From an uncultured bacterium (lineage in GTDB: Bacteria > Abyssobacteria > SURF-5), in NCBI GenBank assembly GCA_964450145.1, contig CAYVDS010000002.1, forward strand, positions 9,978-73,977: a stretch of 64,000 bases of DNA. Direction: 5' to 3'. Shown here piece by piece: positions 4,119 to 64,000 of this stretch. Numbering within the stretch: the stretch's first letter is position 1; every line of letters begins with the position of its first letter. The notes beneath the pieces were generated by a model that was not told the DNA's origin, ran no database searches, and worked only from the letters and a program-made list of their open reading frames with translations. The position numbers were made by a program, and so were the translations under genes.

Positions 4119-4162
4119 GAAGCATGCGCTATGTGATTTCCGAGTCCACTACACAAAAATTG

Positions 4163-4191
4163 TTGCAATTTGCCTTTTGCCCTACTATAAT
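4163..4191 (+). promoter_or_regulatory. Sigma-70-type promoter (TTGCAA-N17-TATAAT) upstream of the sensor kinase genes
   Basis: Read directly: TTGCAAtttgccttttgccctacTATAAT, about 60-80 nt upstream of the first candidate start codons (4250/4271). Confidence 0.6.
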
Positions 4192-4249
4192 GAAAAGCTG
4201 AAGTCTGTCGGAGGGACTGGCACTTCCGCTCGTTGGGCTGCCTTTTTGG

Positions 4250-10324: not shown

Positions 10325-10999
10325 ATGATGACTCTGTTTGGAAGAGCGGCAGCCCCTCCCGATTTCGACGAAGCCCGCCGATTGATGGTTGAAAGACAAC
10401 TTCGCGGCCGTGGAATCAAGGATGAGAGAGTGCTTGCCGCCATGCTGCTTGTGCCGAGGCATGAATTCGTGCCCGACGAGCTTAAGGCCCAGGCGTACGA
10501 GGACCATCCGATCTCGATCGGAGAAAACCAAACCATTTCACAGCCGTTCATGGTCGCGATCATGACGCAGGAACTCCTGCTGAAACCCTCCGATCAGGTG
10601 CTTGAGATCGGCACGGGCAGCGGGTACCAGGCGGCGGTTCTTTCGAGGCTGGCGTCGATGGTCTACACAGTCGAGAGGCGTCAGCGTCTGGCCTGCCTCT
10701 CTTACGCGACGCTGGCGAAGCTCGGCTACCGTAACGTGAGCGTTTTCTGCGCGGACGGAAGCAGAGGACTTCCGGATAATGGGCCATATGACGGCATAAT
10801 CGTCACGGCCGGCGCGCCGGAAGTTCCCACTGTATTGCTCGAACAACTCGCCGACGGTGGCAGGCTCGTGATACCCGTCGGCCAGAAAATGCATCAGGTT
10901 TGCAAACGGATAACGAAGTGGGGGAGCCGCTACGAAACCGAAGACCTGACCGGCTGCGTTTTTGTCCCGCTCATCGGGAGGTTCGGCTGGGAAATTTAG
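10325..10999 (+). CDS. pcm: Protein-L-isoaspartate O-methyltransferase
   Basis: Diagnostic motifs are present: [51 protein letters not shown] and GGRLVIPVG. Confidence 0.93.
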
Positions 11000-11095
11000 G
11001 CATCGTAAGGGGTCTACACGGCCCGTTGCCCAAACCAAATTCGATGAATTTCCTGGCCGGATGGAGCATGATATTCATGGAATTCTTTTTTTTAT

Positions 11096-19965: not shown

Positions 19966-20126
19966 AGTCCACCTCCATCAGGCGCAACAGGAACAAATCA
20001 ACCACACCACTATTTTCTATGAAGCGGGGATCAATGTCAAGGCTGGCCGAAGGCGCACCCCATGGATGAAACGCAAGTCATCTCCGCACAAGTACGCTTA
20101 TTCGGGCAGACCGTGCGTCATGGCGT

Positions 20127-20167
20127 TTATTCGGGGACACGATGCCGCATCGTGTCCCCGAATAAAC
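20127..20167. repeat. R2 hairpin repeat (TTTATTCGGGGACACGATGccgCATCGTGTCCCCGAATAAA)
   Basis: Roughly 18-bp perfect stem, read directly. It lies immediately downstream of the DUF302 gene and may act as its terminator, although no U-tract follows. Confidence 0.75.
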
Positions 20168-29144: not shown

Positions 29145-29405
29145 ATGTTGACATTTGACGTTTACCTTTGGGCCGCCGCACTCGCGGCCATCACATTGAT
29201 ACTGAACCTTCCCTTCGGGTTTCTCAGGGCGAAGGCAAAGAAGTATTCTCTGCGCTGGTTCCTGTGCATCCATTTGCCCATACCGTTCATTTATTACCTC
29301 CGCCATCTGTTCATGCTCACCGCATACGTCATTCCGCTTCTGGTCGTCGCCGCAGTCGTGGGACAGATTTGGGGCGGAAGAATCATGGGGTCGAAAAGTG
29401 CCTGA
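29145..29405 (+). CDS. Small three-helix membrane protein (86 aa)
   Basis: Track ORF, hydrophobic throughout. Its 3-prime end overlaps the GTG start of the next gene by 8 nt. Confidence 0.55.
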   Translation: MLTFDVYLWAAALAAITLILNLPFGFLRAKAKKYSLRWFLCIHLPIPFIYYLRHLFMLTAYVIPLLVVAAVVGQIWGGRIMGSKSA

Positions 29406-32019: not shown

Positions 32020-32056
32020 TTCGAGGACACCTTGCCGCAAGGTGTCCCCGAATTAA
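32016..32056. repeat. R2 hairpin repeat, CTTGCCGCAAGG-loop subtype
   Basis: TTAATTCGAGGACACCttgccgcaaGGTGTCCCCGAATTAA. The TAA stop of the GH57-like gene (32017-32019) lies in its left arm. Confidence 0.75.
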
Positions 32057-49426: not shown

Positions 49427-51319
49427 GTGTCAAGATCGGAGGGCCGAAAGGTGTTCTCGCTTATGATAACTCTCACCGTGCTTTTGATTCTTGCCAGCGT
49501 GGCCTTGCTTATATGGCCGATTCTTGGTGATGGCAGGAAGTACTTGCCAAACTCCGAGGAACTGCGGTGGCTCCGCTCAACCACAATTACGCAGGATGAG
49601 AAAGGTCGCAAAGCGTTTGGGCGCGCCACGCTTGAGCGGCGCGGAGGACTCAGCGTGCTCAAACTGTGCGGCTCGCATTACGAAATGGGGTACCAGCAGG
49701 GCATTCTCCTCAGAGACGATATTCGGGCGGGCGCCGTCCCTTATTACGCAAGACCAACCGAGAACTTCGCGCCATTCAAACACATGAACGCAATAATACG
49801 AAAGTTTCTTGCCATATACTTTGACTGGACAATTTACCGGCCTCTTCTCAAATGCTCGCCAAAACAGTATCTGGCGGAACTGAAGGGTCTGGCCGATGGA
49901 TGCGGACTTCCGTTCGCCGAAATATTCCGTGGTAATATGCTCTCTGACCTGAATATGAATCTGATCAAGGTCCTGGAAAAGAAGGCCCTCAGGAAAGTGG
50001 GGGAGACAGGCTGCACCAGCTTCGCAGCGTTCGGCAAGGCGACTACTGACGGCAAGCTCGTCATGGGCCGAAACACCGACTACGCGGGCGGCGGCCTGTG
50101 GGATACCCACCAGACCGTGGTCTTTTACGAGCCCGACGACGGCTATAAATTCGTGAGCGTAAGCTCGGCCGGTTTGATCAAGTGCAACTCGTGCATGAAT
50201 GAAAAAGGGCTCTGCCTCGGCGCTCATTTCCTCTTTCTCAATGACACATCGCCGGACGGCGTCAGCTTCACGTTTCTCGAAATGGAAATCATGAAGAAAG
50301 CGTCCTCTGTCGAGGAGGCTCTAGCGATAGTGAAACAGAATCCACGCGCAGGCGCGTTCGCGTTTCTGCTGGCCGACGGCAAGGCGAACCAAGCCGCCGT
50401 CGTCGAGGCGAGCACGAACCACATTGGCGTGCGCCACCCATACGACAGTGTCATTTGGGAAACAAATATGGGCACAACCGCCGAAATCATACCGGTCGAC
50501 GTGCTTCTCAGAAACGGAATTGGAAAGAACCCCGTCGCACGCTTCGAGCGCATGCGGATGCTCACGAACGAAAATAAAGGCAAAATCAATCCCCAACTCG
50601 CCGCTCAATTCATGGGCGACCACATGGATATGTGTTCCGACAGCCTGCGGCCCACCGGCGGGATAATCTCGCAGGGGTCGAACCTGACCAGCGCGGTGTT
50701 CAGCCCTGCCACATTCGATTTCTGGGTGGCCGACGGTCTTGCGCCTGTCTGCAACAACGCCTATTTGGGATTTAATTTAATGAGTGAACTTGCTGATAAG
50801 GGTTCAGTCGTCGAACCTAAAACGCTCGCGCCGAATGACTATGTCAAAACAGACGATTACAAGGGACTCAGAAAATTCTATGAAGCCGCCGTGAAATTCA
50901 TGATTCCTCCGACGGATGGAAAAGCCGCGCTCGATAAGCTCGAAGAAGCGGTCGCGCTCAGGCCGGAAGAAGCCATTTACCGCCGGGTGGCCGCAAGGCT
51001 CTTGCTGCGGCGCGGAGACTTCTCCCGGGCTTCCGAGCACCTCAAACGCGCTCTCGAATCTGTCCAGAGCCCGAGCGAATTCGCGCAGACCCATCTGCTG
51101 CTCGGATTCGCGAAGGACCTCCTCGGCAAACGAGACGAGGCGGTAAACTGCTATCAAGCGGCGCTTAAAGTTCCGAATTCGAGCAAGAACGGGGTCCTTT
51201 CCACCGTGAATCCGTTTGCTCTTGCCGATGCAAGAAAATACTCGCAGGCGCCGTTTACCCCAAACGACGCCAAGAAGATCGAGATAAACTTCGAGCTCAC
51301 GAGCAAGCATGACCTCTAG
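49427..51319 (+). CDS. C45-family (acyl-CoA:6-APA acyltransferase-like, Ntn-hydrolase) peptidase with C-terminal TPR region
   Basis: ETGCTSFAAFGKATTDGKLVMGRNTDY is the typical Cys-nucleophile context. There is an N-terminal signal anchor and TPR-like helices at the C-terminus. Confidence 0.7.
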   Translation: MSRSEGRKVFSLMITLTVLLILASVALLIWPILGDGRKYLPNSEELRWLRSTTITQDEKGRKAFGRATLERRGGLSVLKLCGSHYEMGYQQGILLRDDIRAGAVPYYARPTENFAPFKHMNAIIRKFLAIYFDWTIYRPLLKCSPKQYLAELKGLADGCGLPFAEIFRGNMLSDLNMNLIKVLEKKALRKVGETGCTSFAAFGKATTDGKLVMGRNTDYAGGGLWDTHQTVVFYEPDDGYKFVSVSSAGLIKCNSCMNEKGLCLGAHFLFLNDTSPDGVSFTFLEMEIMKKASSVEEALAIVKQNPRAGAFAFLLADGKANQAAVVEASTNHIGVRHPYDSVIWETNMGTTAEIIPVDVLLRNGIGKNPVARFERMRMLTNENKGKINPQLAAQFMGDHMDMCSDSLRPTGGIISQGSNLTSAVFSPATFDFWVADGLAPVCNNAYLGFNLMSELADKGSVVEPKTLAPNDYVKTDDYKGLRKFYEAAVKFMIPPTDGKAALDKLEEAVALRPEEAIYRRVAARLLLRRGDFSRASEHLKRALESVQSPSEFAQTHLLLGFAKDLLGKRDEAVNCYQAALKVPNSSKNGVLSTVNPFALADARKYSQAPFTPNDAKKIEINFELTSKHDL

Positions 51320-51478: not shown

Positions 51479-51994
51479 TTACGCCGTCACGGACAGAAGC
51501 CGTGAATTATCGGTGGGATGGCGAGGAGCGGCCGGCTTGGCGCCGTTCCCGTTTGAGCCGTTTCCGCCACCGTTCTTGGGAACGTACTCGGCCAGCGCTT
51601 TCTCGAAATCAATCTCGGCCCATGCCGAGCGCAAATTGTTGAGAATAGTGAGCACGTTATCGAGAAGCCGGGTCTCCTTCGTGAAATTCACTTCAATCAG
51701 GCGGCCTATCATATACACGTAGAGGCGTTGCAGGTTCTTGGCCACGTCGCCGCCTTCTTCCACGTTCAGGATACGCAGCAGTTCGGTGACTATGTCACGG
51801 GCTCTCACAATAGATTTGTAGCTTTGCGGGTAATCTTTTGCCGTTATCGCGTCTCGGGCCTGAGTCGTGAACTTTATGGCGCCGTCGTAGAGCATGAGGA
51901 TGAGCTCTTTCTGGCATAGCCCATTGACTTGCTCCTCGCGGTAGCATTTCGCCGCCTTTGCGGAAACAATGTCACCCTTTGACGGTTCGCCCAT
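51479..51994 (-). CDS. fliS: Flagellar export chaperone FliS
   Basis: ELILMLYDGAIKFTTQA...SIVRARDIVTELL..LN.EEGGDVAKNLQRLYVYM, plus a Gly/Asn-rich tail. Confidence 0.9.
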   Translation of the reverse strand: MGEPSKGDIVSAKAAKCYREEQVNGLCQKELILMLYDGAIKFTTQARDAITAKDYPQSYKSIVRARDIVTELLRILNVEEGGDVAKNLQRLYVYMIGRLIEVNFTKETRLLDNVLTILNNLRSAWAEIDFEKALAEYVPKNGGGNGSNGNGAKPAAPRHPTDNSRLLSVTA

Positions 51995-52023: not shown

Positions 52024-54333
52024 CTAGCTATTGTTCCCCATCTTGTCCATTGTCGGCAGATTCGCGAGTTGCTCGATAAGGAACTGTCCCTGCGAATTCA
52101 TAGTGGCAAGGGTCGCCTCGAGCCGCGCGAATTGGTCGATCAGATCGAGCCTCTTTTCCTCGAGCCGCTGTTCCATGTCTTCAATATCGGCATCGAGTTC
52201 GTCTATCTTTCGTGTGAAGGTGTCCACGCGCAAGGTGACCCGGCCATCTATTGGGTCGGTAAGGAAACCGAGTTGATCGCTCAACCTGGCCGCGATGCCG
52301 TCTATCACGGTAACAACCGCCTCGGAATCCAATAAGTCCACCTCGGCGGGCGTCAGCGCCACAAGAAGAGAAAGGCCATCGGTCGTCGCATTGCCCGTGT
52401 TTCCCCTCAGTATCTGCCCGCTGCCCGTCGCCGCCTCGCCATTTATAGTTCCGGCCACGTCGTGCCCCGCCGTCGAAACCGCTCCTGTGAGGCCGAGCGT
52501 TCCGAAGGCGCTGTTCTCGGGTTCCGTTCCGAGTTCGACCTTGGATGAGGCCCCATAGCTGGATGACGTGAACACCAGGCGCCCGTCGGTAAATTCGACT
52601 GTGATACCCCGTCCGGAAAGCTGCGAATCTGCGTCGAGTTGCGTTTGTATCTCGGCGGCCAGTTCGTCGCCTGTGGCATATGTTTGAGCGGTTAGCGTCA
52701 GAATCGAGCTTTCCTTGTTGTCGACCGTCAAGCGGAATTGATTGTCGCTGCTCGTAAGTGTTATCGGAAAGCCGCTCAGGTCGGAGCCTTCGAGTATTCC
52801 GTGCGTGGCAGCAGAGGTTATGTCAACCACGAAACCGGAACTGCTCAGAACGGTCCGGGAAGTTGAAGAAACGTAAGTGACGTCGGGGTTCGTTGTGGCG
52901 AAGCTTGTTGAGAACAGGTCCGTTACGCCGTCGAGGTTTGATGCAAGCGCAGCGTCGAGTTTGGCGGAGTCAAGAACGAGGGTACCTGTCTCCCCGACGG
53001 AGGTGATGCCGATTGCCGCCAGCCGGTTCATATCGCTGGGCAGGCCCGGAATGACGCCGGTCGCTATTCTCCTTAAATCATTCTGCACGCTTACGAGCAA
53101 CGAATCGCCGATTAGCAGGCCGGCTTCCTCCGCAACGGTATCATAGCGGAGTTGCTCGTTCAGGAAATCAATGACTTGATTGTACGACTCCACAAAGCCT
53201 TCGACGGCAGTCCGCACCGCTTCGGTATCATTCGCGACGGTCAACCTGACCGTTGTCGCGGGGTCCGCGCCATTAAGATTCAGAGTGACTCCGGGGATGA
53301 CATCCGTGAATGTGTTGGTGGTGCTTCTTATAGTGATGGGCGCGCCGCCGCCCGAACTGCTGCCCAACGTAATGGATGCATCCTGCGCGACTTGGATCGT
53401 GGGCACGAACGTGTCAATGGAGAATTGGTCTCCGACGGCAAGCGTGCCGCTGTCGCTGAACGCTATCGAGACACCGTCTTCCATGACTGTTCCGGCGGCC
53501 GACGTGAGGAATCCGGCGCCGCCGTTGTCGTTGAATGTCACTCCGCCGTCCGTCGAGTAGCGGAAAGTCGCGACGCCGACAGCCCCGCCCGACATTATCT
53601 CCACCATGAAAGTCTGGTTCGCGCTGCCCGCGTAAGAACCGAGGGCTGTGGCGCTGCCTGTGTAAGAGGAACTATTGCCCTGGCCGACTTCGACCGAATC
53701 GAGGTTGTTGCTCTCGAAGTCGGGCGCAGTTCCGCCCGTCAGGTTGACGGTTACATCTATTGTGTTGGCAGCGCCGCCTACCGAACTCGTCAGCAAGAGC
53801 CGGTACGGATTCGAGGCGCTGCCGTCGTTGATGATTGTCGCCGTGACGCCGGCGTCGGCGTTATTGATTGCGTCTCGCAATTCGCCGAGCGTATCATCGC
53901 CGGCATCGATTTCGATTGTGGTTACGGCTCCCGAGCCTACCCTGATGGCTATAGTGCCAGCGCCAATACTCGTTTCGTCCGTGTCCGCAAAGCCTTGCGA
54001 GGCCAATTGGTGTGCCTGCGCAAGCTGGTTGACCCTAATAAAGTGAGTGCCGGGGGCAGCATTGCCGGTGACGGAAGCAGAGAGCAGGGACTCGTTGCTT
54101 GAGGTGACAGCAAGCGTCTGGAAACTATCCTGTCTGGAAAGGGAAGTCGCCGAAGTGCGTAACGCGAGGAGGAGCCCATTGAAGCTCTGGATCGTCGTCA
54201 GCTTCGCGGTCTCTTCCGTCTTTGTAGCCGTTACAAGGTCGATTCGGCGTTGCTCCACGGAGACTATGCTGTCTATTATGGACTGCCAGTCTATTCCAGT
54301 GGATATTCCAGTAAAGGTTATGTCACCCATCAC
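52024..54333 (-). CDS. fliD: Flagellar filament cap protein FliD (hook-associated protein 2), unusually long (769 aa)
   Basis: N-terminus ITFTGISTGIDWQSIIDSIVSVEQRRIDL. The C-terminus is a coiled coil (IDELDADIEDMEQRLEEKRLDLIDQFARLEATLATMNSQ). Confidence 0.93.
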   Translation of the reverse strand: MMGDITFTGISTGIDWQSIIDSIVSVEQRRIDLVTATKTEETAKLTTIQSFNGLLLALRTSATSLSRQDSFQTLAVTSSNESLLSASVTGNAAPGTHFIRVNQLAQAHQLASQGFADTDETSIGAGTIAIRVGSGAVTTIEIDAGDDTLGELRDAINNADAGVTATIINDGSASNPYRLLLTSSVGGAANTIDVTVNLTGGTAPDFESNNLDSVEVGQGNSSSYTGSATALGSYAGSANQTFMVEIMSGGAVGVATFRYSTDGGVTFNDNGGAGFLTSAAGTVMEDGVSIAFSDSGTLAVGDQFSIDTFVPTIQVAQDASITLGSSSGGGAPITIRSTTNTFTDVIPGVTLNLNGADPATTVRLTVANDTEAVRTAVEGFVESYNQVIDFLNEQLRYDTVAEEAGLLIGDSLLVSVQNDLRRIATGVIPGLPSDMNRLAAIGITSVGETGTLVLDSAKLDAALASNLDGVTDLFSTSFATTNPDVTYVSSTSRTVLSSSGFVVDITSAATHGILEGSDLSGFPITLTSSDNQFRLTVDNKESSILTLTAQTYATGDELAAEIQTQLDADSQLSGRGITVEFTDGRLVFTSSSYGASSKVELGTEPENSAFGTLGLTGAVSTAGHDVAGTINGEAATGSGQILRGNTGNATTDGLSLLVALTPAEVDLLDSEAVVTVIDGIAARLSDQLGFLTDPIDGRVTLRVDTFTRKIDELDADIEDMEQRLEEKRLDLIDQFARLEATLATMNSQGQFLIEQLANLPTMDKMGNNS

Positions 54334-54348: not shown

Positions 54349-54738
54349 TCATCCGCTTTCGTCAAGGAGGATACCGACAATGTTCCGTATCTTCGCGTAA
54401 ACGTCCAACAACTCCTGGGGCGGAATCTGGCGAATAACTTCGCCGTTTTCATCGAGCACCTGAACTGCGGATCGTCCGCTTGCCTCGTCGCGGATAAAGT
54501 TGAGGCTGCTTCCGATCTCATGCAGATACTTGTTGATTCCGTCAAGAGTGTTCTCCACCTCAGCAGCATCCATTTCGGCAGCGTCCGTTTCAGCGACGGT
54601 TTGCGGCAACGAAACGGGCGCAAACTGAGGTGTCGCTGGCGGGCTGCTTGCAACTCGACGGTCGGTACTGACACCGGACGTTCTTCCAGCAGCCGGGTCA
54701 AGGCCTGGGTAGCCTGCCTGATCAATCCTTATGCCCAT
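54349..54738 (-). CDS. flaG: Flagellar protein FlaG
   Basis: SLNFIRDEASGRSAVQVLDENGEVIRQIPPQELLDVYAKIRNIVGILLD is the FlaG signature. It sits between fliC and fliD. Confidence 0.85.
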   Translation of the reverse strand: MGIRIDQAGYPGLDPAAGRTSGVSTDRRVASSPPATPQFAPVSLPQTVAETDAAEMDAAEVENTLDGINKYLHEIGSSLNFIRDEASGRSAVQVLDENGEVIRQIPPQELLDVYAKIRNIVGILLDESG

Positions 54739-54817: not shown

Positions 54818-56596
54818 TTACCCCAGCAACTGAAGCACCGTCTGTGGAATTGCATTCGCCTGCGCCAATACAGACACGCCTGCCGACAGGAGTATCTGGT
54901 CTCTCGTGAACGAGCTTATTTCCGCCGAGATGTCCACGTCTCTGATCGTGCTCTCGGAGGCCATCAGATTCTCCTCGGCGATGTTGAGCGAGCGAAGATT
55001 CGTCTCGAGCGTATTCTGCTGGAACGCGCCCAACTTCGCGCGCAATCTCGAAATCTCATCGATCGCTTCGTCGAGAAGTGTGACAGCGTCATTCGCGCCC
55101 TGGACTGACTGCACATCGATCTCGCTCAGGTTCGCAAAATTGCTGTCGTTCAGAATCCCGAGAGCAAGTTTGTCGGATGAGATATCCTGCACGGATATTC
55201 TCACGACCTGATTCTGATTCGGTCCGACCTGGAACTGCAACGAGTTGTCAACGACCGATATCGTGACTGAGGAGTCCACGGTCGGGACGTTGAAGAACCC
55301 GAAGCTGACATCGAGCGTGCCGACCGCCTCGCCGGCGGCATCTGTGCCGGCGCTCAGCGTCTTGGTCTCGCCCGAGGACATATTCACTTTCGGGCCGGAA
55401 CCGAGCTGGACGTCAAAAGACGCCGCCGTAACTTCGACGTTGAGCGTCGCGCCGTCCACCAGTTCCTGCGACGAGAACGCCGCCTCGAACGTCAGCGCAA
55501 GGGAGCCGCCGTCAGCGTCGTAGACCACGAAGTTCGTGGTCCCCGTCGCAAGGCTCACTGTAGCGCCGTCATCGAGCTGCACGCTGACATCCGTGCCGTT
55601 GGCGGCGGTAACGGTTGCCGTCGCGTAACCGTAGTCCTGGGCCGTTGCAGCGTCCGCGAACAAGACCGTAATGGTCTGTCCGGTACCGACGGCAGTGCTG
55701 TTACCGTCGATGATGATCGAGTAGGTGCCATCGCCATTATCGACGGCCACAAAGTCGCCTGCCGTGGCTTCGGCGTTGATCTCGGCCACAATGTTGGAGA
55801 TCGTGTTGGCCTCGTCTCCCTCGAAGGTTACTATACTGGTGCCGGCCGCAGACACTATCGTGATCGTTGTCGCCGTAAGCGTGCTGCTGCCGTCGAACAC
55901 GGCCTCGGTCGACGAAGTCACATATGCGCCTGTCGCCTCAGACACCACGAGGCTGTGTGCCCCTGGCTCAAGACCGTTCGGATCTCCGTCGCTGCCCGTA
56001 CCCCCGAGCGTCACGTTGCTCAGCAGGCCGAACGTGTCCGAAGTGATCGTCGCGCTTGCATCAGTTATGTTCGTGATGCTGAGGGTGTAAGCGCCGGTCA
56101 TGAGTGTGCTGTTGGTCATCGTCTGCAGACCAACAGTGTTTGGGCTCGTCAGAGCAACTCTGTTCTCGAACGTCCCGTCCAGCAGCGTCTGGATGCTGAA
56201 CTGAGTCGTGTCCGAGATGCGGGTTATTGTCTGAAGAGCGTTCGCGATTTCCGCCTGGTCAGCCGCGAGAGACGTCGCGTTGTTGATGCCCGAGTTGGCC
56301 GCATCGAGCGCGAGCTCGCGCATGCCGATCAGAAGCGAGTTCACCTCGTTGAGAGCGCCCTCAATCGTCTGCACGAGGTTAACCGCTCTCTCCGAGTTGA
56401 CGATTGCCGCGTTCAGGCCGGCAATCTGCGCCCTGAGTTGTTCCGAGATCGCCAGACCGGCGGGGTCGTCGGCTGCGGTATTGATGCGCAGACCTGACGA
56501 CAACCTCTGCACCGACCTGAACAACCGCGAATCGGCAAGGAGCAGATTCCTGTGCGCGGTTATCGCAGTGACGTTAGTGTTAATCCGTAAACCCAT
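54818..56596 (-). CDS. fliC: Flagellin (592 aa) with a long Thr/Ser/Ala/Gly/Asp-rich central domain
   Basis: MGLRINTNVTAITAHRNLLLADSRLFRSVQRLSSGLRINTAADDPAGLAISEQLRAQ...; the C-terminus is QILLSAGVSVLAQANAIPQTVLQLLG. The SD AAGGAGGA lies 5 nt upstream of the ATG at 56596; the track ORF extends to 56668. Confidence 0.97.
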   Translation of the reverse strand: MGLRINTNVTAITAHRNLLLADSRLFRSVQRLSSGLRINTAADDPAGLAISEQLRAQIAGLNAAIVNSERAVNLVQTIEGALNEVNSLLIGMRELALDAANSGINNATSLAADQAEIANALQTITRISDTTQFSIQTLLDGTFENRVALTSPNTVGLQTMTNSTLMTGAYTLSITNITDASATITSDTFGLLSNVTLGGTGSDGDPNGLEPGAHSLVVSEATGAYVTSSTEAVFDGSSTLTATTITIVSAAGTSIVTFEGDEANTISNIVAEINAEATAGDFVAVDNGDGTYSIIIDGNSTAVGTGQTITVLFADAATAQDYGYATATVTAANGTDVSVQLDDGATVSLATGTTNFVVYDADGGSLALTFEAAFSSQELVDGATLNVEVTAASFDVQLGSGPKVNMSSGETKTLSAGTDAAGEAVGTLDVSFGFFNVPTVDSSVTISVVDNSLQFQVGPNQNQVVRISVQDISSDKLALGILNDSNFANLSEIDVQSVQGANDAVTLLDEAIDEISRLRAKLGAFQQNTLETNLRSLNIAEENLMASESTIRDVDISAEISSFTRDQILLSAGVSVLAQANAIPQTVLQLLG

Positions 56597-56648
56597 TGTT
56601 ATCCTCCTTGATACGTGCGCGCCCAACCCAGATGAGCGCCGCCGTTGC

Positions 56649-56666
56649 GCGGGCCTCCTTGCCCGC
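56649..56666 (-). promoter_or_regulatory. Leader hairpin presenting AAGGAG in its loop (candidate CsrA site)
   Basis: The minus strand reads GCGGGCaaggagGCCCGC, about 40 nt upstream of the SD AAGGAGGA of fliC. Confidence 0.4.
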
Positions 56667-56935
56667 AAGCCAATTTCGCAGGTATTGGCCTTGACCTCGA
56701 ATCTTTTTTAGGTCGGATCCGGCGACCATTTCAACCAGGGACTGTTTCCGCGTCAGCCCCCGGCACTCTCCGAAAAAAGGCGAAAGGGAAAACCTAAGAA
56801 GACTAATTCCCAGTTTCTGCTTGAATCCCCGCATTTCTGCCTTTGTCCTTCCCCTTTTGCGCATTCTGCCTTTATGTTTCATTCCTCATTCTTGCAAAGG
56901 CAGGAATCCACTCTTACTGCGAGTTCCATTGGCTT

Positions 56936-56963
56936 ATATCGGCATGGTCAACGAGAAACTTTA
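56936..56963 (-). promoter_or_regulatory. Sigma-28 (FliA) promoter of fliC: TAAAgttt-N-GCCGATAT (TAAA-N16-GCCGATAT)
   Basis: The minus strand reads cTAAAGTTTCTCGTTGACCATGCCGATATaag. The consensus is TAAA-N15-GCCGATAA. It begins 3 nt after the sulfotransferase stop. Confidence 0.8.
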
Positions 56964-56965
56964 GA

Positions 56966-57790
56966 TTACCAATCCTTGTCGCTCGCGTAACCTAATTCGA
57001 TAAGCAGGTCTCCGGCGACCTCTTTGACGGCCTGTTTGTCCGGTGGTTTCAACGCCTCCCTCCACCGGCCGACCGAAGTGCTATAAAGAGCCTTGGACAC
57101 TTGACTTGCGCTTGACTCGCCCGCCAAATTCCGTTCCTTCTCATGGAAAGAGAGCACTGCTGTGTCCCATGGTTCTCCGATGAATGAGAAAAGCCTTTGA
57201 AGGGTGGGGACGGGCTCGTTCACGATCCCCTCATAGCGGACTTCGGCGTATTTCCCGTTAATTAAGTTCTGGTGCGCTCTGCGGCCCGCCCGGATTGCCG
57301 CAACCCAATATTCGGCCGCTTTTCGGGCATTGCGAGTATATTCAATCGGCTGGCCGGTCTGCGGGTTCACCCAGTTCATCTTGAGCAGCGAACAGACGAC
57401 GTCCCGCCAGTCACGAATGACATGGATGAGAGGGCTTTCCGGAAAAAGCTGATGCAAATGTTGAAAGAAGAAGACGTTGTTCGGCGATTTTTCAGCGATG
57501 CGGAGCTTGCCCGACTTCCGGCGGTAATTCTCGAGCAGCGACAGAAGCATCTGCCCGAAAAGACGATTGATATCCGCGGGAGATAGAAAATACTCCCTCA
57601 ACGGCGGAGCGTACGCGGTCTGGAAATTGTGCCAAAGCTCCGCAACCATCGGAGTCACCTTGAGTTCCGGACCACATGCGATGTTCGGATGCGAGTCGAG
57701 GATGACGCGAATCAGCGTTGTGCCCGACCTGCCCGCGCCCCCCACAAAGATCGGCGAACTGCTCACTGCCTTTTCCTCCCGCGGTCTCAT
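56966..57790 (-). CDS. Sulfotransferase, TPST/RaxST-like (Sulfotransfer_3-type)
   Basis: PIFVGGAGRSGTTLIRVILDSHPNIACGPE is the 5-prime-PSB motif and LIHVIRDWRDVV the 3-prime-PB motif. The C-terminal part (VRYEGIV..P...L..LFSFIGEPWD.AVLSFHE) parallels protein-tyrosine sulfotransferases, judged from memory. Confidence 0.8.
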   Translation of the reverse strand: MRPREEKAVSSSPIFVGGAGRSGTTLIRVILDSHPNIACGPELKVTPMVAELWHNFQTAYAPPLREYFLSPADINRLFGQMLLSLLENYRRKSGKLRIAEKSPNNVFFFQHLHQLFPESPLIHVIRDWRDVVCSLLKMNWVNPQTGQPIEYTRNARKAAEYWVAAIRAGRRAHQNLINGKYAEVRYEGIVNEPVPTLQRLFSFIGEPWDTAVLSFHEKERNLAGESSASQVSKALYSTSVGRWREALKPPDKQAVKEVAGDLLIELGYASDKDW

Positions 57791-57813
57791 TGCCGTTCCC
57801 CGCTCGTTTTATT

Positions 57814-57836
57814 ATTACCGCGAAAGCGGGAATCCA
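57814..57836. repeat. R1 hairpin repeat (ATTACCGCgaaaGCGGGAATCCA)
   Basis: Read directly, 24 nt upstream of the sulfotransferase start. Confidence 0.65.
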
Positions 57837-57927
57837 ATATGTGCGAGGTCACTTTCAGCTTTATCGAAAACCTCGTGACATATATCGGCATACCAGCCCA
57901 ATGTCTTCAGTGAGGGGGCTCGGAAAT

Positions 57928-57955
57928 TAAAGGCAATCTCCAACCGTGCCGATAA
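57928..57955 (+). promoter_or_regulatory. Second sigma-28 (FliA)-type promoter, pointing at the GT2-TPR genes: TAAA-N16-GCCGATAA
   Basis: The plus strand reads atTAAAggcaatctccaaccgtGCCGATAAgaa. It has a perfect -10 and the same N16 spacing as the fliC promoter. Confidence 0.7.
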
Positions 57956-57985
57956 GAATTACGGTTACCTCGAACCGACAGGGCC

Positions 57986-58055
57986 GTAATTCGGGACATG
58001 ATGCTCATCGTCAGCTTATTCGGGGACACCTTGCCGCAAGGTGTCCCCGAATAAG
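57986..58055. repeat. R2 hairpin repeat, 1.5 copies
   Basis: GTAATTCGGGACATGATGCTCATCGTCAG + CTTATTCGGGGACACCttgccgcaaGGTGTCCCCGAATAAG. Confidence 0.75.
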
Positions 58056-58064
58056 CGGCCAGAT

Positions 58065-58159
58065 CCTTAGTTAGGAGCCTCTGACCACGCCTCCGGCGTG
58101 ATTAACTGTCAAAGGAAGGGTTTAGCGGATGGTCATTGCGAGCGAAGCGAAGCAATCTC
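58065..58159 (+). repeat. Composite interspersed element R5, copy B
   Basis: CCTTAGTTAGGAGCCTCTGACCACGCCtccGGCGTGATTAACTG...GGTCATTGCGAGCGAAGCGAAGCAATCTC. Confidence 0.7.
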
Positions 58160-58273
58160 TTTACTTTTTCGCCTTCTCTTCTCTTTTCAACTCGAGACTC
58201 GACACTCGGAACTCGAAACCCGCGCGTTTCGCGCGGCTCCCTTTCCCCTTGTTCCTTTCCCCTTTCCCCTTTC
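58160..58273. repeat. Three consecutive short-period arrays (TTCTCTT flavour, ACTCGAG/ACTCGGA flavour, CCCTTTC flavour) separated by the hairpin GCGCGtttCGCGC
   Basis: caactcg agactcg acactcg gaactcg aaacccg ... ccctttc cccttgt tcctttc ccctttc ccctttc, then TTAGGAG and the ATG at 58286. Confidence 0.75.
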
Positions 58274-58285
58274 TTAGGAGTGTAC

Positions 58286-61200
58286 ATGGGCAAAAAGAAA
58301 CGAAATAATCGCAACGTGAGGAAGAACGCCGCCGGTTCTATCGCCCTGTGCATGATTGTCAAGAACGAGGAAGCAAACCTCGCCCGCTGCCTCGAAAGCG
58401 TGCGAGGTCTAGTGTCGGAAATAAACATAGTCGATACGGGTTCAAGCGACAACACCATTCGGCTGGCGGAAAGCCTCGGAGCGAAGATGCGGCGTGAGCA
58501 GTGGGTCAATGATTATAGCCGCGCCCGGAATGCCTCGATTGAGATGGCGCGCGCTGAGTGGATATTGGTGCTCGATGCCGACGAAGTTCTCTCTCCCGAC
58601 GCAATTCATAAGATTGAAGCAGCCGTTCGACGGCCGGGGATAGACGGATACGTGCTCCCGACCCGCAACTACATGAACGATCCGTCCGTGGCGAATTTTG
58701 TGGCGAATGATGGAGGTTATGAACCTGCGCGCGCATTCAAAGGATGGGTCGAATCTCGCAAAGTGCGCCTGTTCAAGCGGCGGAATGGCATTCGATTCGA
58801 GGGGGAGATACACGAGGTAATCGGGCCTTCAATACGCCGCTCCGGCGGAAGAACAGAATTCCTTGATGCGGCAGTCCACCACTTCGGTTTCCTCGCGCCG
58901 GCGGATACGCTCAAGGAAAAGGCTGCGAGGATGCTGGCGCTCGCAGAAGCGAAATGCGAGAGCCAAAACCGCAACTATCAAGCGCACTATGAACTTGGCG
59001 TGATCCTCGCTCAGCTCGGCAGCCTCGAAAAGGCAGAGAATAGTTTCAGAAAAGCGATTGCGCTTCGGGATGATTTTGCTCTGGCCCATTATGATCTGGC
59101 CGTGGTCCTCGCACGAGCCAGTCGGTTCGACGATGCGATTTCAGAATATCGGACCACTCTTAAACTCGACCCGCAGAATGCGGATGCCCTGTGTAACCTC
59201 GCCGTCTGTTTTCAGAAACTCGGTCGCAGCAAAGAGGCCGAGGAGACCTACCGGCTGCTGCTCGAAAAGCATCCGCATGAAAAGCGCGGATGGAACAACC
59301 TGGGCGCATTGCTGGCCTCGATGGGAAAGTTGGCGGAGGCCGAGCAATCGTTTGAGAACGCCGTCCAAATCGACCCCGACTTCTCACTCTCCCTCCAGAA
59401 CCTTAAAAGCATCCGCACCCTGAAAACGCAGAGCGGCGCTTTTGCAACGAAGCGACAACAAAGCAACCCACCCGAATGTCATTCCCGCGAAAGCGGGAAT
59501 CCATTCGATAACAGCAAGTCATTGAACACGTGGTCGTTACCCTCTGCGGCTGACACTGCTTCTCCAACCCTGGCCCTCATCATGATTGTCAGGAACGAAG
59601 AGGACAATCTCAGCGAACTCCTTCCCGAACTCGCGCCCTGTTTCGATGAGATTGTCATCGTTGATACAGGCTCACGCGACAAGACCGCAGAAATCGCTGG
59701 AAAGTTCACCGACAACGTGTTCCATTTCTCATGGATAGATGACTTCTCGGCGGCAAGGAATTTCGCGCTCTCAAAGTGCGAGGCCGATTGGATTCTCTGG
59801 CTCGACGCCGACGACAGGATGCGGCGCGACGATATAGCCGCAATCAGACCTCATATCTCGAAACCGAACAAGGCATATTTACTGAAGGTCGTATCTTCCG
59901 CCGGTGATTCGGACACTGCGGAGTTCATCCAGATTCGCCTGTTCCCGAATATCGAAGGGGTCGAGTGGGAAGGACGAATTCATGAGCAGTTACTCCCTTC
60001 TCTGAAGCGGAAAGGGCTGGATTTCGAGCTGCTGCCGGATGCGACCGTTATCCATAAAGGCTACGACGACGCGAACATGTTGAGACAGAAAACCCGGAGA
60101 AATATACACTTGCTCGAGAAAGAGCGCGATTTGAGACCGGACGACCCCAATGTGCTGCACCATCTCGCGCAGGCCTACGCTATCGTGGGTGAATTTATGC
60201 AAGCTATCGAAACGTCCGAGAGCTTTATTCGGGTCCTTCATGAGCATCCAAAAAGCGAGTTCATGACGTCGGCGATAAATCGGCTTATCCAATGTTATCT
60301 CTTTAAGGGAAATGTTGAGAGGGCGCGCGCGTGGGGCGGGCGGCTCCTGGAAATGGACCCCCAAAACCGGCTCGCGCGCTATTTCATGGGGGAAATACGG
60401 TATCGGATGGGATTGTTCGAGGAAGCCGCTGATTGGTTCAGACAATTCTGCACGACAAAGGAAACGGTCGGCCTGGTTCCCGTGCCGTGGGCTGCTCTAA
60501 ACGCAAACGCGCACAACTACCTTGGACTTGTCTACGAGCGCACCGGCCAGCGCGAGAAAGCGCGCGCCGAATTCCGCACGGCAATTGAACTCGGCGCGAG
60601 AGTCGAAGCGTACAAGAATCTGGCCTTACTATGTCTCGAAGATGGCGATTCCGCCGCGGCGGAGACCACGCTGCGCGCCGCGATAGAGCACGGTCACAAG
60701 AACGCCGACATCTGGACGAATCTCGGCGTCGCCCTCGCGCGCTTGCAGAGATATGACGAGGCCGCGGCGTCGTTTCGGAAAGCGCTCGAAATTGACCCCG
60801 CCGACAAAGCAGCCCGTGAGAATCTCAAACGGCTGGAACACAAGCTCCGATGCGACCTCAGCCTGAACATGATTGTCCGCGATGAGGAGAAGAACCTTCG
60901 CGAGGCGCTAGCCTCTATCGCGAATCTGTTTGACGAGATAGTCATTGTCGACACGGGCTCTCAAGATAGCACTATCGCCGTAGCCGAAGAGTTAGGCGCA
61001 CGAGTCATTCATCATCCATGGACCGACAATTTTGCCGAGGCGAGAAACGCCGCGCTTAAGAATAGCAGCGGTAAATGGGTCTTCTGGCTCGATGCCGACG
61101 ACAGAATCGAACCGCAAGCCGTGCGCACACTTCGTAAATTCATCGCTCGCGAAATTCCATGCGGTGTCTTCTTCCCCCTTGAGTCGACAATCGGGAACAA

Positions 61201-61864
61201 CGGCCAAAGCGTCCAGAATTATACGCTCAGAATGTTCCCGAATACTCCTGAGGTTTCATGGAAAGGCGCCGTGCACGAACAGATAGCGGACAGCCTGCGC
61301 GACTGCGGCATTGACCTCGTGAACTGTCCCGATCTCACCATCCGGCATGTCGGCTACGAGAACGAGGCGGACGCCCTGAAAAAGAACCTTCGGAACCTGA
61401 ATCTGCTCGCCAAAGAACTGGCCTCCAGACCGGATGACCCGTACGTTGTGTTCGCGCTGGCGCAGGCGTTCCTCTTCTTTGGGCAAGAACAGCACGCCGT
61501 CAAATGGCTCCAGCTTCTTTGGAAAGTGCGAGAGGAGAAGGGTGATTCTTCGGCGCGCGACATCTTCTGGATGGCTGCCCTTATGCTCTCGGACTGCGCC
61601 GCGCGCTCCGGTTCCGTCGCTGAAGTCGAGACGTGGCTCGAGCGCGCAATCGAGCTTTCCCCTTCCACCTGGGTCGCATATTTTCTCCTCGGCGAGAGAA
61701 AACTTCTCGAAGGACAGACCGAACGCGCTTCCGACCTTCTCCGCAAAGCGGAAAAGATCGGTATAACTCCGACGTTGGTCCCGCTCGACATAAACACGAT
61801 AAGGGAAAAACTCGAACGATATTTGGAAGAATTAAGGCAGGCGCCAATCGGCAACCATGTCTAA
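58286..61864 (+). CDS. Triple-module glycosyltransferase: (GT2 GT-A domain + TPR) x3 in one 1192-aa polypeptide
   Basis: Three paralogous GT-A starts are present: IALCMIVKNEEANL..IVDTGSSDNT..LDADE, LALIMIVRNEEDNL..IVDTGSRDKT..LDADD and LSLNMIVRDEEKNL..IVDTGSQDST..LDADD. Each is followed by TPR-like helices. The ATG at 58286 has the SD AGGAG 5 nt upstream; the track ORF starts at 58136 inside repeats. Confidence 0.85.
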   Translation: MGKKKRNNRNVRKNAAGSIALCMIVKNEEANLARCLESVRGLVSEINIVDTGSSDNTIRLAESLGAKMRREQWVNDYSRARNASIEMARAEWILVLDADEVLSPDAIHKIEAAVRRPGIDGYVLPTRNYMNDPSVANFVANDGGYEPARAFKGWVESRKVRLFKRRNGIRFEGEIHEVIGPSIRRSGGRTEFLDAAVHHFGFLAPADTLKEKAARMLALAEAKCESQNRNYQAHYELGVILAQLGSLEKAENSFRKAIALRDDFALAHYDLAVVLARASRFDDAISEYRTTLKLDPQNADALCNLAVCFQKLGRSKEAEETYRLLLEKHPHEKRGWNNLGALLASMGKLAEAEQSFENAVQIDPDFSLSLQNLKSIRTLKTQSGAFATKRQQSNPPECHSRESGNPFDNSKSLNTWSLPSAADTASPTLALIMIVRNEEDNLSELLPELAPCFDEIVIVDTGSRDKTAEIAGKFTDNVFHFSWIDDFSAARNFALSKCEADWILWLDADDRMRRDDIAAIRPHISKPNKAYLLKVVSSAGDSDTAEFIQIRLFPNIEGVEWEGRIHEQLLPSLKRKGLDFELLPDATVIHKGYDDANMLRQKTRRNIHLLEKERDLRPDDPNVLHHLAQAYAIVGEFMQAIETSESFIRVLHEHPKSEFMTSAINRLIQCYLFKGNVERARAWGGRLLEMDPQNRLARYFMGEIRYRMGLFEEAADWFRQFCTTKETVGLVPVPWAALNANAHNYLGLVYERTGQREKARAEFRTAIELGARVEAYKNLALLCLEDGDSAAAETTLRAAIEHGHKNADIWTNLGVALARLQRYDEAAASFRKALEIDPADKAARENLKRLEHKLRCDLSLNMIVRDEEKNLREALASIANLFDEIVIVDTGSQDSTIAVAEELGARVIHHPWTDNFAEARNAALKNSSGKWVFWLDADDRIEPQAVRTLRKFIAREIPCGVFFPLESTIGNNGQSVQNYTLRMFPNTPEVSWKGAVHEQIADSLRDCGIDLVNCPDLTIRHVGYENEADALKKNLRNLNLLAKELASRPDDPYVVFALAQAFLFFGQEQHAVKWLQLLWKVREEKGDSSARDIFWMAALMLSDCAARSGSVAEVETWLERAIELSPSTWVAYFLLGERKLLEGQTERASDLLRKAEKIGITPTLVPLDINTIREKLERYLEELRQAPIGNHV
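59478..59504. repeat. R1 hairpin repeat inside the CDS, in frame, at the module 1/2 junction
   Basis: GTCATTCCCGCgaaaGCGGGAATCCAT, translated as CHSRESGNPF. Confidence 0.75.
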
Positions 61865-61990
61865 CCGTGGTGCGAGCCTGCCACTGTGGGGCGAAGCCGT
61901 CATTCTGAGCGTCTGACCGCACCTCCTCCGCTGAGCTTATCCCAAACGCAAAGGATATGGGGGTAAACATCGAAGGCGTAAATTCCGGCA

Positions 61991-63328
61991 ATGCTGTCCA
62001 ATCCAAAATCTAAAATCCAAAATCTAGAATGTGGTACCATTTCTCTCTGCATGATCGTCCGCAACGAGGAGCGCTTTCTGGCCGATTGTCTGAGAAGCGT
62101 GCGCGGAGTAGTTGACGAAATAGTCGTCATAGACACGGGCTCGTGTGACGCGACACCTCGTATCGGAGCCGATTTCGGGGCGCGCGTGCTGCCATTTGAA
62201 TGGAACGACGACTTCAGCGCGGCGCGAAATCATTCGGTTCAAAACGCGCGCGGCGACTGGATACTCATTCTCGATGCCGACGAGGTCATCGCACAACGCG
62301 ACAAATCGAAAATCCTGAGCCTCGCGCAAGGCGATGCCGACGGGTACCTGTTCACATATCGCAACTATTCTCAGAACAGTCACGATATTCGCTGGGTAGC
62401 CAACGACGGGTCATATACCGAAGCCGATGGGTGGGATGGATGGATTCCCGGCCAGGTTGTCCGTATGTTCAGGCGCGACGGCCGCATCCGCTTTCTTGGC
62501 GCGGTGCATGAGAGGGTGGACCAGTCGATTCGCCGTTTCGGAGGAAGAATCGCCGAGACGGACATCATCGTCCACCATTTTCATGAGAAAAAGGGGGAAC
62601 AGCGACTCCGGGAGAAACAGCTCTCGTATTTGCGTCTCTGCGAGAGAAGCATGGTAAAGTGTCCGAACGACCCTAAGACCCACTTCGACATGGGGCTCGT
62701 TTACAGACATGTGCTCAAGGATTTTCCAAAAGCGATTTCGCACCAGGAACAGGCTGTCCGGCTCAGACCCGATTTTGAAGATGCCCATACCGAACTTGCC
62801 CTCCTCTACCATCTCACCAATGATACGACGAATGCCGCTAAGGAAATCTCCATTCTTCTCCGCCACAACCCTGGACACGCGCCCGCGCTGGTTTTGTGTG
62901 GTATAATCTTTGAGAGACGCGGAAGGCCTGAGCGCGCCATCGAGTGTTACGAGCGCGCGCTCAAGGCGAACCCGAATCTCGTTGATGCGCGCCTGAATCT
63001 TGGAACACTGTATCTTAAGAAAAGCGACGCAGCGCGAGCGCGCATAGAATTGGAGGAGGCTCTCCGGGTCAATCCGTCGAATCCGCGGGCGCTCCTGAAT
63101 CTTGGGGCGCTCGAACTGCGCCAGGGCAACGATACGGCTGCGGAGACCCTGTTGCGCAAAGCGCTTGAAAAATCGCCTGAGAGCGCACTCGCGTGGAGCA
63201 ATATGGGCGTGGTGTACGCGCGCACAGGCCGAAACGAGCAGGCGCGCGAAGCCTTCGCGAAAGCCGTTGCGCTTGAGCCCTCCCGCGAGGATGTCCGCCG
63301 CAATCTCGAGGCCAGTTGTCGCTCGTAG
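61991..63328 (+). CDS. GT2 GT-A domain + TPR glycosyltransferase (fourth paralogous module, 445 aa)
   Basis: ISLCMIVRNEERFL..VIDTGSCDAT..FSAARN..LDADE, followed by TPR repeats (PDFEDAHTELALLY, NPNLVDARLNLGTLY, NPSNPRALLNLGAL). Confidence 0.88.
   Translation: MLSNPKSKIQNLECGTISLCMIVRNEERFLADCLRSVRGVVDEIVVIDTGSCDATPRIGADFGARVLPFEWNDDFSAARNHSVQNARGDWILILDADEVIAQRDKSKILSLAQGDADGYLFTYRNYSQNSHDIRWVANDGSYTEADGWDGWIPGQVVRMFRRDGRIRFLGAVHERVDQSIRRFGGRIAETDIIVHHFHEKKGEQRLREKQLSYLRLCERSMVKCPNDPKTHFDMGLVYRHVLKDFPKAISHQEQAVRLRPDFEDAHTELALLYHLTNDTTNAAKEISILLRHNPGHAPALVLCGIIFERRGRPERAIECYERALKANPNLVDARLNLGTLYLKKSDAARARIELEEALRVNPSNPRALLNLGALELRQGNDTAAETLLRKALEKSPESALAWSNMGVVYARTGRNEQAREAFAKAVALEPSREDVRRNLEASCRS
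62000..62027. repeat. Heptad-periodic array, 4 units (aatccaa aatctaa aatccaa aatctag) inside the first 12 codons of the CDS
   Basis: Read directly, translated as SNPKSKIQNLE. The same flavour occurs at 63617-63637. Confidence 0.7.
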
Positions 63329-63616
63329 GCGCCAAGAGGTATTCTTAACTGCAGATTCACGCAGGCGAACGCAGCGCGGCCAAGGCCGCAACCAAAAAGA
63401 AGAAGAAACTCTGGGAACACGAATGTTACAAATGGAAAAGCGAATGCACGAATCCATTTCAGAATACGGAGTTATATACATAATATTCTTGAAAATCACG
63501 ACAAAAATTCAAGACATTAACAGTGAGTAGTGCGGTGAGTATTGACTTATAAGTCTTTCCTCTGCGATCCTCCGCGGCCTTTGCGGTTCAGTTTTTCTTA
63601 TTTTGGGCAGCAGTGA

Positions 63617-63637
63617 TCTAAAATCCGAAATCCAAAA
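63617..63637. repeat. Heptad-periodic array, 3 units (atctaaa tccgaaa tccaaaa)
   Basis: Read directly, 8 nt upstream of the ATG at 63645. Confidence 0.6.
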
Positions 63638-63644
63638 CAAAGCT

Positions 63645-64000
63645 ATGGCGGCGCGCACCGATAATGAGAAGTTAGCCCCGCTGTTTGACGGCCCTCGCGC
63701 CGTCCGCCTCGAGGAGCACGCTTCCGCTCTGCGGCTGCTGAACTCCGTGTTGCGGCCCGAGAGCCCTCCCTCCATCCTGCAAGAATACCCGCTTGTCCTC
63801 GGAAAAGAAAACATCGAGAACATGCGTGTGATTATAAAGGGCAACGAGGTCGTCGCTCATGCTGCCATCTATTTTTCGTATTTGCGCTCCGGTAGTCTTC
63901 GATTCAAAGTCGGCGGCGTCGGCTCGGTGGCGACACATCCTGAGTACCAGGGTCAAGGGTTAGGCAGCGCGGTCGTGCGAGACTGCACACGTATCATGCG
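63645..64000 (+). CDS. GNAT-family N-acetyltransferase (N-terminal part; runs off the right edge)
   Basis: Not in the ORF track because there is no stop. My translation is MAARTDNEKLAPLFDGPRAVRLEEHASALRLLNSVLRPESPPSILQEYPLVLGKENIENMRVIIKGNEVVAHAAIYFSYLRSGSLRFKVGGVGSVATHPEYQGQGLGSAVVRDC. It contains the acetyl-CoA motif A (V.T.P.YQGQGLG). Confidence 0.75.
   Translation, partial: MAARTDNEKLAPLFDGPRAVRLEEHASALRLLNSVLRPESPPSILQEYPLVLGKENIENMRVIIKGNEVVAHAAIYFSYLRSGSLRFKVGGVGSVATHPEYQGQGLGSAVVRDCTRIM

Follow-up and report, generated by a model that had tools for sequence, protein, structure and literature searches.

The last 12.5 kb of the DNA analysed here contain a compact flagellar filament module on the minus strand, fliS-fliD-flaG-fliC, with a gene for a sulfotransferase (ST) of the type that uses 3′-phosphoadenosine 5′-phosphosulfate (PAPS) located 5′ of fliC. 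This DNA is a stretch of 64,000 nucleotides (in the following "the window") from an uncultured bacterium of the lineage SURF-5 (Abyssobacteria; GenBank assembly GCA_964450145.1, contig CAYVDS010000002.1, positions 9,978 to 73,977 of the forward strand). A glycosyltransferase (GT) operon and a GNAT gene diverge from ST and fliC on the plus strand. The ST probably belongs functionally to flagellin modification. For the full proposal, an island for flagellin O-glycosylation in which the ST adds sulfate to the glycan on flagellin, we rate the chances as even. The gene content and the domain identities are established, and all features that an earlier note on this DNA had listed around fliC were found, at the positions given there or nearby (TPR, tetratricopeptide repeat; TPST, tyrosylprotein sulfotransferase; ORF, open reading frame):

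51479..51994, minus strand: fliS, flagellin chaperone (Pfam FliS, E 1.7e-35)
52024..54333, minus strand: fliD, filament cap (Pfam FliD_N, FliD_C and Flagellin_IN)
54349..54738, minus strand: flaG (Pfam FlaG, E 1.7e-18)
54818..56596, minus strand: fliC, flagellin, the presumed substrate (Pfam Flagellin_N and Flagellin_C)
56966..57790, minus strand: sulfotransferase with TPST fold, PAPS-type (Pfam Sulfotransfer_3)
58286..61864, plus strand: ORF with three GT2+TPR modules, GmaR-like, putative flagellin O-glycosyltransferases (three Glycos_transf_2 stretches and TPR repeats in Pfam)
61991..63328, plus strand: fourth GT2+TPR module as a gene of its own, 445 aa (Pfam)
63645..64000, plus strand: GNAT, cut by the end of the window (Acetyltransf_9, E 3.7e-10)

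The link between ST and flagellin recurs in other genomes. A homology search with the ST returned 724 matches from several phyla, many of them 57-76% identical, so that its family is large and its sequence unusually well conserved; an exact look-up of the window ST in the index of contigs gave no match. For a survey of linkage, 80 loci with ST homologues were taken from species-representative genomes (labelled L in the following), and their ORFs were searched with the window proteins. Flagellin was found at most 10 kb from the ST homologue in 14 of the 80 loci. Of these, L001-L004 are related to the window and syntenic with it, and the GT operon is divergent from fliC in all four. Outside the lineage of the window, 45 loci have 5 kb or more on each side of the ST; flagellin lies within 10 kb in 10 of these 45, with a binomial P of 2e-11 to 6e-5 if a background of 1-5% is assumed. 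In the ten further linked loci the ST is usually immediately adjacent to flagellin, with gaps of roughly 100-250 nt (MAG, metagenome-assembled genome):

L034: Cloacimonadota
L038: Salinibacteraceae
L042: Rhodothermales
L048: Salinibacillus xinjiangensis J4, cultured
L050: Salinibacillus kushneri CGMCC 1.3566, cultured
L053: Virgibacillus necropolis WLG-406, cultured
L051 and L058: Bacillota MAGs
L059 and L068: unclassified MAGs

In a neighbour-joining tree of the ST domains the linked loci are spread over at least five separate clades, with unlinked loci in between. The association of ST and flagellin proposed in the earlier note survives this comparison of neighbourhoods, as it recurs in several ST clades beyond the window's own.

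A GT gene lies next to the ST in 14 of 14 flagellin-linked loci. It is usually a GT2 gene, while L034 and L059 have GT41-TPR partners; GT2(-TPR) genes beside flagellin were seen in L038, L042, L048, L050, L051, L053, L058, L068 and L081, and L059 additionally encodes a sugar-type C-methyltransferase. Fusions of the ST with partner domains are frequent. GT2-(TPR)-ST fusions stand directly beside flagellin in L050, L051 and L053, and GT2-ST fusions that are larger or placed differently were seen in Anaerolineae, Myxococcota and other MAGs. L038 and L042 have TPR-ST fusions directly beside flagellin. Two metagenome TPR-ST fusions, 62-63% identical to the window ST, lie in L081 (order cheB, TPR-ST, GT2-TPR, flagellin) and in L082 (order cheX, TPR-ST, TPR-GT2).

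The TPR-GT41 (OGT-like) partner genes are located at 4709-6652 (minus strand) of L034 and at 3503-7161 (minus strand) of L059. In L086 (3-1535, 2871-4595) the ST lies between a GT41-like gene and an MptE-like (PF01973) gene on the opposite strand, past which genes for a CTP-transferase and a CDP-alcohol phosphatidyltransferase follow. PF01973 is known as the domain of the Maf flagellin-glycosylation proteins. The protein glycosyltransferases that accompany the ST are therefore of more than one type, and TPR-GT41 genes take the place of GT2 in some loci. The number of ST genes also varies. A second, divergent Sulfotransfer_3 gene follows straight after the first ST in L048 (11901-12797) and L050 (10889-11869), and in L053 the second ST is a short ORF fragment only (10789-11031). 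Around a GT2-TPR gene of L085 there are five STs, and in L063 as many lie within about 10 kb.

The window ST comprises 274 aa and matches Sulfotransfer_3 over profile positions 1-215 of 216 (118.1 bits versus a cutoff of 27, E 8.9e-34). A GTG at 57766, with GGAGG 8 nt upstream, would give a protein of 266 aa; homologues mostly have 266-268 aa, and this GTG may be the true start. The sequence has no hydrophobic N-terminal segment, so that the ST is probably cytoplasmic. The 5′-phosphosulfate-binding (5′-PSB) loop GAGRSGTTL, pointed out in the earlier note, is kept, and its residues G20-R21-S22-G23-T24-T25 are nearly invariant in the ST family. Within the 3′-phosphate-binding (3′-PB) motif R126, D127, R129, D130 and S134 are retained. 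The sequence IRDWRD, which the note had given for this motif, is present but departs from the near-invariant RDGRD, because Trp128 (G128W) replaces the Gly.

By sequence, the closest solved relatives of the ST are tick and human TPST1/2 (E 1e-23 to 1e-16, residues 14-268, 24-27% identity). In three aligned TPST sequences conserved residues stand opposite R21, E42, K101 and S227; we take these counterparts to be the catalytic residues R78, E99, K158 and S285 of TPST2. In an alignment of 29 homologues E42 and K101 never vary, and R21 and S227 hardly do. An AlphaFold2 model of the ST (pLDDT 88, pTM 0.86) was compared to solved structures by Foldseek. Ranks 1-13 were all TPST1/2 or tick TPST with TM-scores of 0.75-0.82 (0.79-0.82 for TPST1/2), followed by the CurM ST (0.63) and by carbohydrate or cytosolic sulfotransferases (0.4-0.57). 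Sequence and predicted fold thus both support the TPST-like identity that had been assigned earlier. The NCBIfam model NoeE gave a weak partial match (46.3 bits versus a cutoff of 500) to residues 14-143, the N-terminal PAPS-binding part.

With TPST1/2 as by far the best matches in sequence and fold, and with the presumed catalytic residues of TPST2 aligned to residues conserved in the family, one has to consider that the ST sulfates the flagellin protein directly, on Tyr or Ser/Thr hydroxyls and independently of sugars, while its TPR partners merely bring the common substrate. TPR-ST fusions without a GT domain (P0066, P0069, L038, L042) would suit such a protein-directed enzyme, and stand-alone ST homologues without a nearby GT point in the same direction. 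The flagellin of the window offers candidate sites. FliC has 592 aa, starting with MGLRINTN, and is as long as the earlier note had said; the Thr/Ser/Asp-rich centre, given there as about 330 aa, measures 347 aa, with 25% Ser+Thr and 7.8% Asp. Its six tyrosines are located in this central domain, and two of them are near acidic residues.

The tyrosines argue against direct sulfation once other flagellins are considered. The acid-flanked ones (QDYGYAT, VVYDADGG), which the earlier note had put forward as the preferred context, are replaced by F, S or N in orthologues: across the four closest orthologues Y359 reads Y/S/N/S, Y324 reads Y/F/F/F and Y322 reads Y/Y/F/Y. The one tyrosine shared by all four is Y170, whose context is not acidic. 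Tyrosine is absent from the flagellin of L042 and occurs just once in those of L048 and L053, as Y13 of the N-terminal segment; the central domains of these three flagellins contain 23-31% Ser+Thr. Tyrosine sulfation as a family-wide function was rejected on these grounds, as some ST-linked flagellins have zero or one tyrosine. For proteins we know of no enzyme that O-sulfates Ser/Thr. The presence of a GT at every flagellin-linked locus and the fusion of some ST domains to GT2 also speak against an action independent of sugars. We consider direct sulfation of the protein unlikely. Its more specific form, in which a TPST-fold enzyme recruited by TPR would O-sulfate flagellin side chains (Tyr, else Ser/Thr) in the cytoplasm, ahead of type III export, appears quite unlikely.

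A glycan as acceptor is favoured by the same data, since the tyrosines in question are not conserved and other linked flagellins are free or nearly free of tyrosine. The constant GT partner, the GT2-ST fusions and the second divergent ST in L048 and L050 also make it more likely. The TPST-like fold suggests that the acceptor is peptide-bound, and the TPR fusions suggest a protein substrate. We infer that a sugar on flagellin is the more likely acceptor of the ST.

The GT modules fit a flagellin substrate. That four GT2+TPR modules diverge from fliC and are followed by a GNAT gene, as claimed earlier, is borne out by the Pfam matches. The long ORF encodes 1192 aa, the modules span about 340-450 aa each, and the four are 26-37% identical to each other. 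All four GT2 modules retain a DxD motif, and multiple TPR families follow in each. Of the proteins with solved structure, GmaR of Listeria is nearest to the GT2 domain (PDB 22ao_A, E 5.3e-28, residues 17-196; among the PDB matches listed, GmaR is represented by its GT domain only), then SunS (E 2.9e-19). The earlier note had likened the modules to flagellin glycosyltransferases of the Caulobacter FlmG type and to SunS; the combination of GT2 and TPR is confirmed, and among solved structures the closest characterised protein is GmaR, with SunS in second place. The matches to the SunS family TIGR04195 of NCBIfam (78 and 76 bits versus a cutoff of 350) reflect homology of the GT2 domain only.

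The number of fused modules varies, with 3+1 in the window (58286-63328), 4+1 in L004 (2717-8623) and 5+1 in L001 (1304-8509). Bigger fusions occur elsewhere: one ORF of L019 (Nitrospirota) encodes 2667 aa, and Anaerolineae have GT2x3-TPR-ST ORFs with a length of about 2000 aa. In L001-L003 and in L004 the first genes of the GT operon encode a 143-aa MerR_1 helix-turn-helix protein (L004 9354-9785, minus strand) and a 245-aa TPR-only protein (L004 8620-9357, minus strand). The position of this MerR-type regulator recalls the tie of GmaR to flagellar gene regulation. No remnants of the MerR-like or TPR-only genes were found in the GT-operon leader of the window (57960-58285, about 330 nt, non-coding). 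Full-length orthologues of the GNAT are present in L001 and L004. Lysine is very rare in FliC (about 4 among the 592 residues, none within the first 150), which makes Lys acetylation of flagellin by the neighbouring GNAT unlikely.

Promoter motifs suggest that the two divergent units are expressed with the flagellar genes. The whole window was searched for TAAAG-N15-GCCGATAA, allowing up to two mismatches. Six sigma-28-type matches were obtained versus 1.2 expected, none of 100 shuffles reached six, and three of the six sites fall within the 1-kb core of the locus:

56936..56963, minus strand: candidate fliC promoter, sigma-28-type, TAAAGTTTCTCGTTGACCATGCCGATAT (TAAAG-N15-GCCGATAT), one mismatch
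57928..57955, plus strand: candidate GT-operon promoter, sigma-28-type, TAAAGGCAATCTCCAACCGTGCCGATAA, perfect match
57882..57909, minus strand: weak sigma-28-like site 5′ of ST, TGAAG-N15-GCCGATAT, two mismatches, not conserved

The end of the ST gene adjoins the candidate fliC promoter, as described before, with a gap of 2 nt (stop codon 56966-56968) and not of 3 nt. In the relatives an equivalent sigma-28-type fliC promoter lies about 115 nt nearer to fliC than in the window. The second sigma-28-type promoter, which had been postulated before the GT operon, matches the consensus perfectly and is kept in the four related loci, where it forms the sole conserved block of the intergenic alignment (window versus L001-L004). 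The exact motif TAAA-N14-16-CCGATA had 15 matches in the 14 flagellin-linked loci and one match in 970 kb of other loci, which argues that it is specific. Judged from their sequence, the candidate promoters would depend on FliA; no fliA gene was identified among the annotated ORFs of the window. Another sigma-28-like site, GAAAG-N15-GCCGATAT with two mismatches, is located at 52184-52211 (minus strand), in the 3′-terminal part of fliD and ahead of fliS.

Several observations weigh against a sulfated flagellin glycan as the product of this locus. The closest solved relatives of the ST act on peptide tyrosine, and sugar sulfotransferases match far worse, with TM-scores of 0.4-0.5. Among the annotated ORFs of the window there is none for an APS (adenosine 5′-phosphosulfate) kinase or a sulfate adenylyltransferase, the enzymes of PAPS synthesis. 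Control of the ST itself by sigma-28 is not conserved, because in the region upstream of ST L003 has a site similar to that of the window while L001, L002 and L004 carry a sigma-70-like TTGACA-17-TAGTAT. Many close homologues (55-65% identity) stand alone among unrelated neighbours, with no flagellin or GT within 10 kb, so that the ST family is not exclusively flagellar. The G128W replacement may, to judge from the alignment, impair the window ST.

There are two other explanations. First, the ST may act on another molecule (a polysaccharide, a lipid, a small molecule or another protein) and lie near fliC because flagellin loci are variable hot spots of glyco-genes. Most close homologues are not linked to flagellin, and some of them lie by multihaem cytochromes or peptidases; L063 and L085, with 4-5 tandem STs, resemble clusters of the polysaccharide type. 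The weak likeness to the Nod-factor sulfotransferase NoeE and the sigma-70-like ST promoter of three relatives would also suit such a role. On the other hand, the ST is a neighbour of flagellin in at least five clades, often the immediate one, fusions with TPR and GmaR-like GT2 suggest a protein-bound substrate, and two TPR-ST fusions lie in chemotaxis or flagellin contexts. We regard this explanation as very unlikely. The neighbours of stand-alone homologues (L005, L006, L009, L010, L027, L083) were tried as a clue to the substrate. They include M28 and M13 peptidases, a multihaem cytochrome, HDOD and DUF2252; since they share no theme, no alternative substrate emerges from these loci.

Second, the ST of the window may be inactive or weakened by G128W, or the replacement may be an assembly error; this is compatible with any reading at the family level. 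Position 128 (codon 57407-57409) is Gly in 73 of 75 homologues and in the three aligned animal TPSTs, G128W is the only departure of the window ST from the 90% consensus, and a single G-to-T change suffices for it. The other invariant residues are intact, however, and the ORF has full length. L037 has Pro at this position, and other homologues deviate from the consensus at 1-4 positions. Such a defect or error is rather improbable in our view; were the window ST inactive, the island would glycosylate here without sulfating.

For the proposed sulfation of a flagellin-bound glycan, we infer the following order of steps. Late in flagellar assembly, the sigma-28-type promoters would turn on fliC and the divergent GT operon with GNAT. 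In the cytoplasm, the TPR parts would dock flagellin and the GT2 parts would O-glycosylate Ser/Thr in the 347-aa central domain, and the four diverged GT2 modules may add different sugars or act on different sites. The ST with PAPS would then sulfate the flagellin-bound glycan and create an anionic, sulfated filament surface, and the GNAT may acetylate an amino sugar. The modified flagellin would finally be exported and polymerised under FliD.

The 5′ leader of fliC is a further conserved element of the locus:

56597..56790, minus strand: structured fliC 5′ leader of about 190 nt (alignment with relatives and folding, z -2.5)

This leader is about 90% identical across five loci, and four to five hairpins are predicted for it. 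In one of them, GCGGGC-AAGGAG-GCCCGC, the AAGGAG lies in the loop, upstream of the Shine-Dalgarno sequence AAGGAGGA, an arrangement reminiscent of flagellin leaders that are controlled by CsrA. The equivalents are at 11120-11325 in L001, 6165-6371 in L002, 4500-4704 in L003 and 11005-11209 in L004; the five sequences are too alike for covariation. The leader matches no described family, as an Rfam scan of 56400-58500 gave only sub-threshold miRNA and snoRNA noise, and nhmmer found it in the window's lineage only.

The leader of the GT operon contains a repeat that resembles repetitive extragenic palindromic (REP) elements:

58015..58055, no strand: REP-like perfect palindrome in the GT-operon leader, one of four window copies

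This hairpin was considered as a terminator or a locus-specific operator and rejected, because the REP-like repeat, TTATTCGGGGACAC...GTGTCCCCGAATAA, has four copies in the window (20126-20166, 30976-31016, 32016-32056 and 58015-58055). Its half-sites gave 9 matches versus 0.03 expected, and the palindrome is probably not specific to the flagellin system. One copy lies inside an 873-aa ORF (29398-32019), which may be mis-called, since it has no Pfam match. Adjoining fliS, the region 49427-51319 (plus strand) encodes a 630-aa protein with a domain similar to acyl-CoA:6-aminopenicillanic acid acyltransferase (AAT) and TPR repeats. The remaining window holds housekeeping genes, among them rpoD, dnaG, dnaK/dnaJ/grpE, hrcA and genes for pyruvate:ferredoxin oxidoreductase. 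Its DnaK belongs to a cluster at 90% identity that bears the name Candidatus Lindowbacteria.

Among known systems, GmaR is the nearest to the GT modules. GmaR transfers O-GlcNAc to flagellin, and its GT domain precedes TPR repeats, which were proposed to recognise flagellin (PMC9638930). Like the window modules it has an N-terminal GT2 followed by TPR and is encoded with flagellar genes, and it is the best solved relative of the window GT2. GmaR is a single protein of 637 aa, which includes an additional linker and a MogR anti-repressor domain, whereas the window has four diverged modules of about 340-450 aa, three of them fused. To our knowledge, no sulfotransferase accompanies GmaR.

For the ST, the animal TPST1/2 are comparable in their PAPS-dependent fold with 5′-PSB and 3′-PB motifs, in the aligned conserved residues and in the TM-scores of 0.79-0.82. 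Animal TPSTs are membrane proteins of the Golgi, whereas the window ST, at 24-27% identity, has no hydrophobic N-terminus, and fusions with GT2 and/or TPR are common in its family. A further difference is the presumed substrate, as the flagellins of several linked loci have no conserved tyrosine or none at all. RaxST of Xanthomonas (with RaxX) is also among the nearest cases; it is likened to the window ST only by extension from TPST1/2.

Sulfur oxyanions on motility filaments are known from other systems. The archaellins of Halobacterium salinarum carry sulfated N-glycans, for which two enzymes, VNG1056C and VNG1057C, act on two sugars; both have a sulfatase / alkaline-phosphatase fold and not the fold of PAPS sulfotransferases (PMC11980604). 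The likeness lies in filament subunits with sulfated glycans and in the two enzymes, which parallel the two STs of the Bacillota loci. This system differs from ours in being archaeal and N-linked, its glycan is built on a lipid carrier, and the archaellum is unrelated to the bacterial flagellum. The type B flagellin O-glycan of Clostridioides difficile has sulfonated peptidylamido sugars and thus a sulfur oxyanion as well. Here the sulfonate is part of an appended moiety and is not a sulfate ester made by a PAPS sulfotransferase, and we know of no TPST-like gene in the locus for this glycan. The rhizobial NoeE and NodH also sulfate sugar hydroxyls with PAPS in a late tailoring step, but their substrate is a lipo-chitooligosaccharide and not a glycoprotein.

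No description of a PAPS-type sulfotransferase that acts on bacterial flagellin was found in the literature searched, in agreement with the earlier note, which had placed such an enzyme outside the described repertoire of flagellin modification. An Alteromonas paper in which both terms occur was examined as a possible precedent and rejected, as it deals with O-chain islands and not with flagellin. What is new here is a PAPS-type ST as a recurrent, putative tailoring enzyme of flagellin glycosylation islands, which predicts, on the basis of gene content, that sulfated flagella exist.

If the flagellin itself were O-sulfated directly, no sulfated flagellin protein of a bacterium would have preceded it, and in the case of Ser/Thr the ST would be the first protein Ser/Thr O-sulfotransferase to be identified. 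If the proposed sulfation of the flagellin glycan is true, the known chemistry of bacterial flagella gains sulfate esters, and sulfated flagella would span lineages as far apart as Cloacimonadota, Rhodothermales and Bacillota, among the last of these halophiles that can be cultivated. Bacterial TPST-fold enzymes would gain a role beyond that of RaxST, and the GT2-TPR-ST fusions would be compact enzymes with which sulfated O-glycoproteins could be made. Sulfated filaments would carry a strong negative charge, which could alter their bundling, adhesion, the attachment of phages and the recognition by receptors of hosts or predators.

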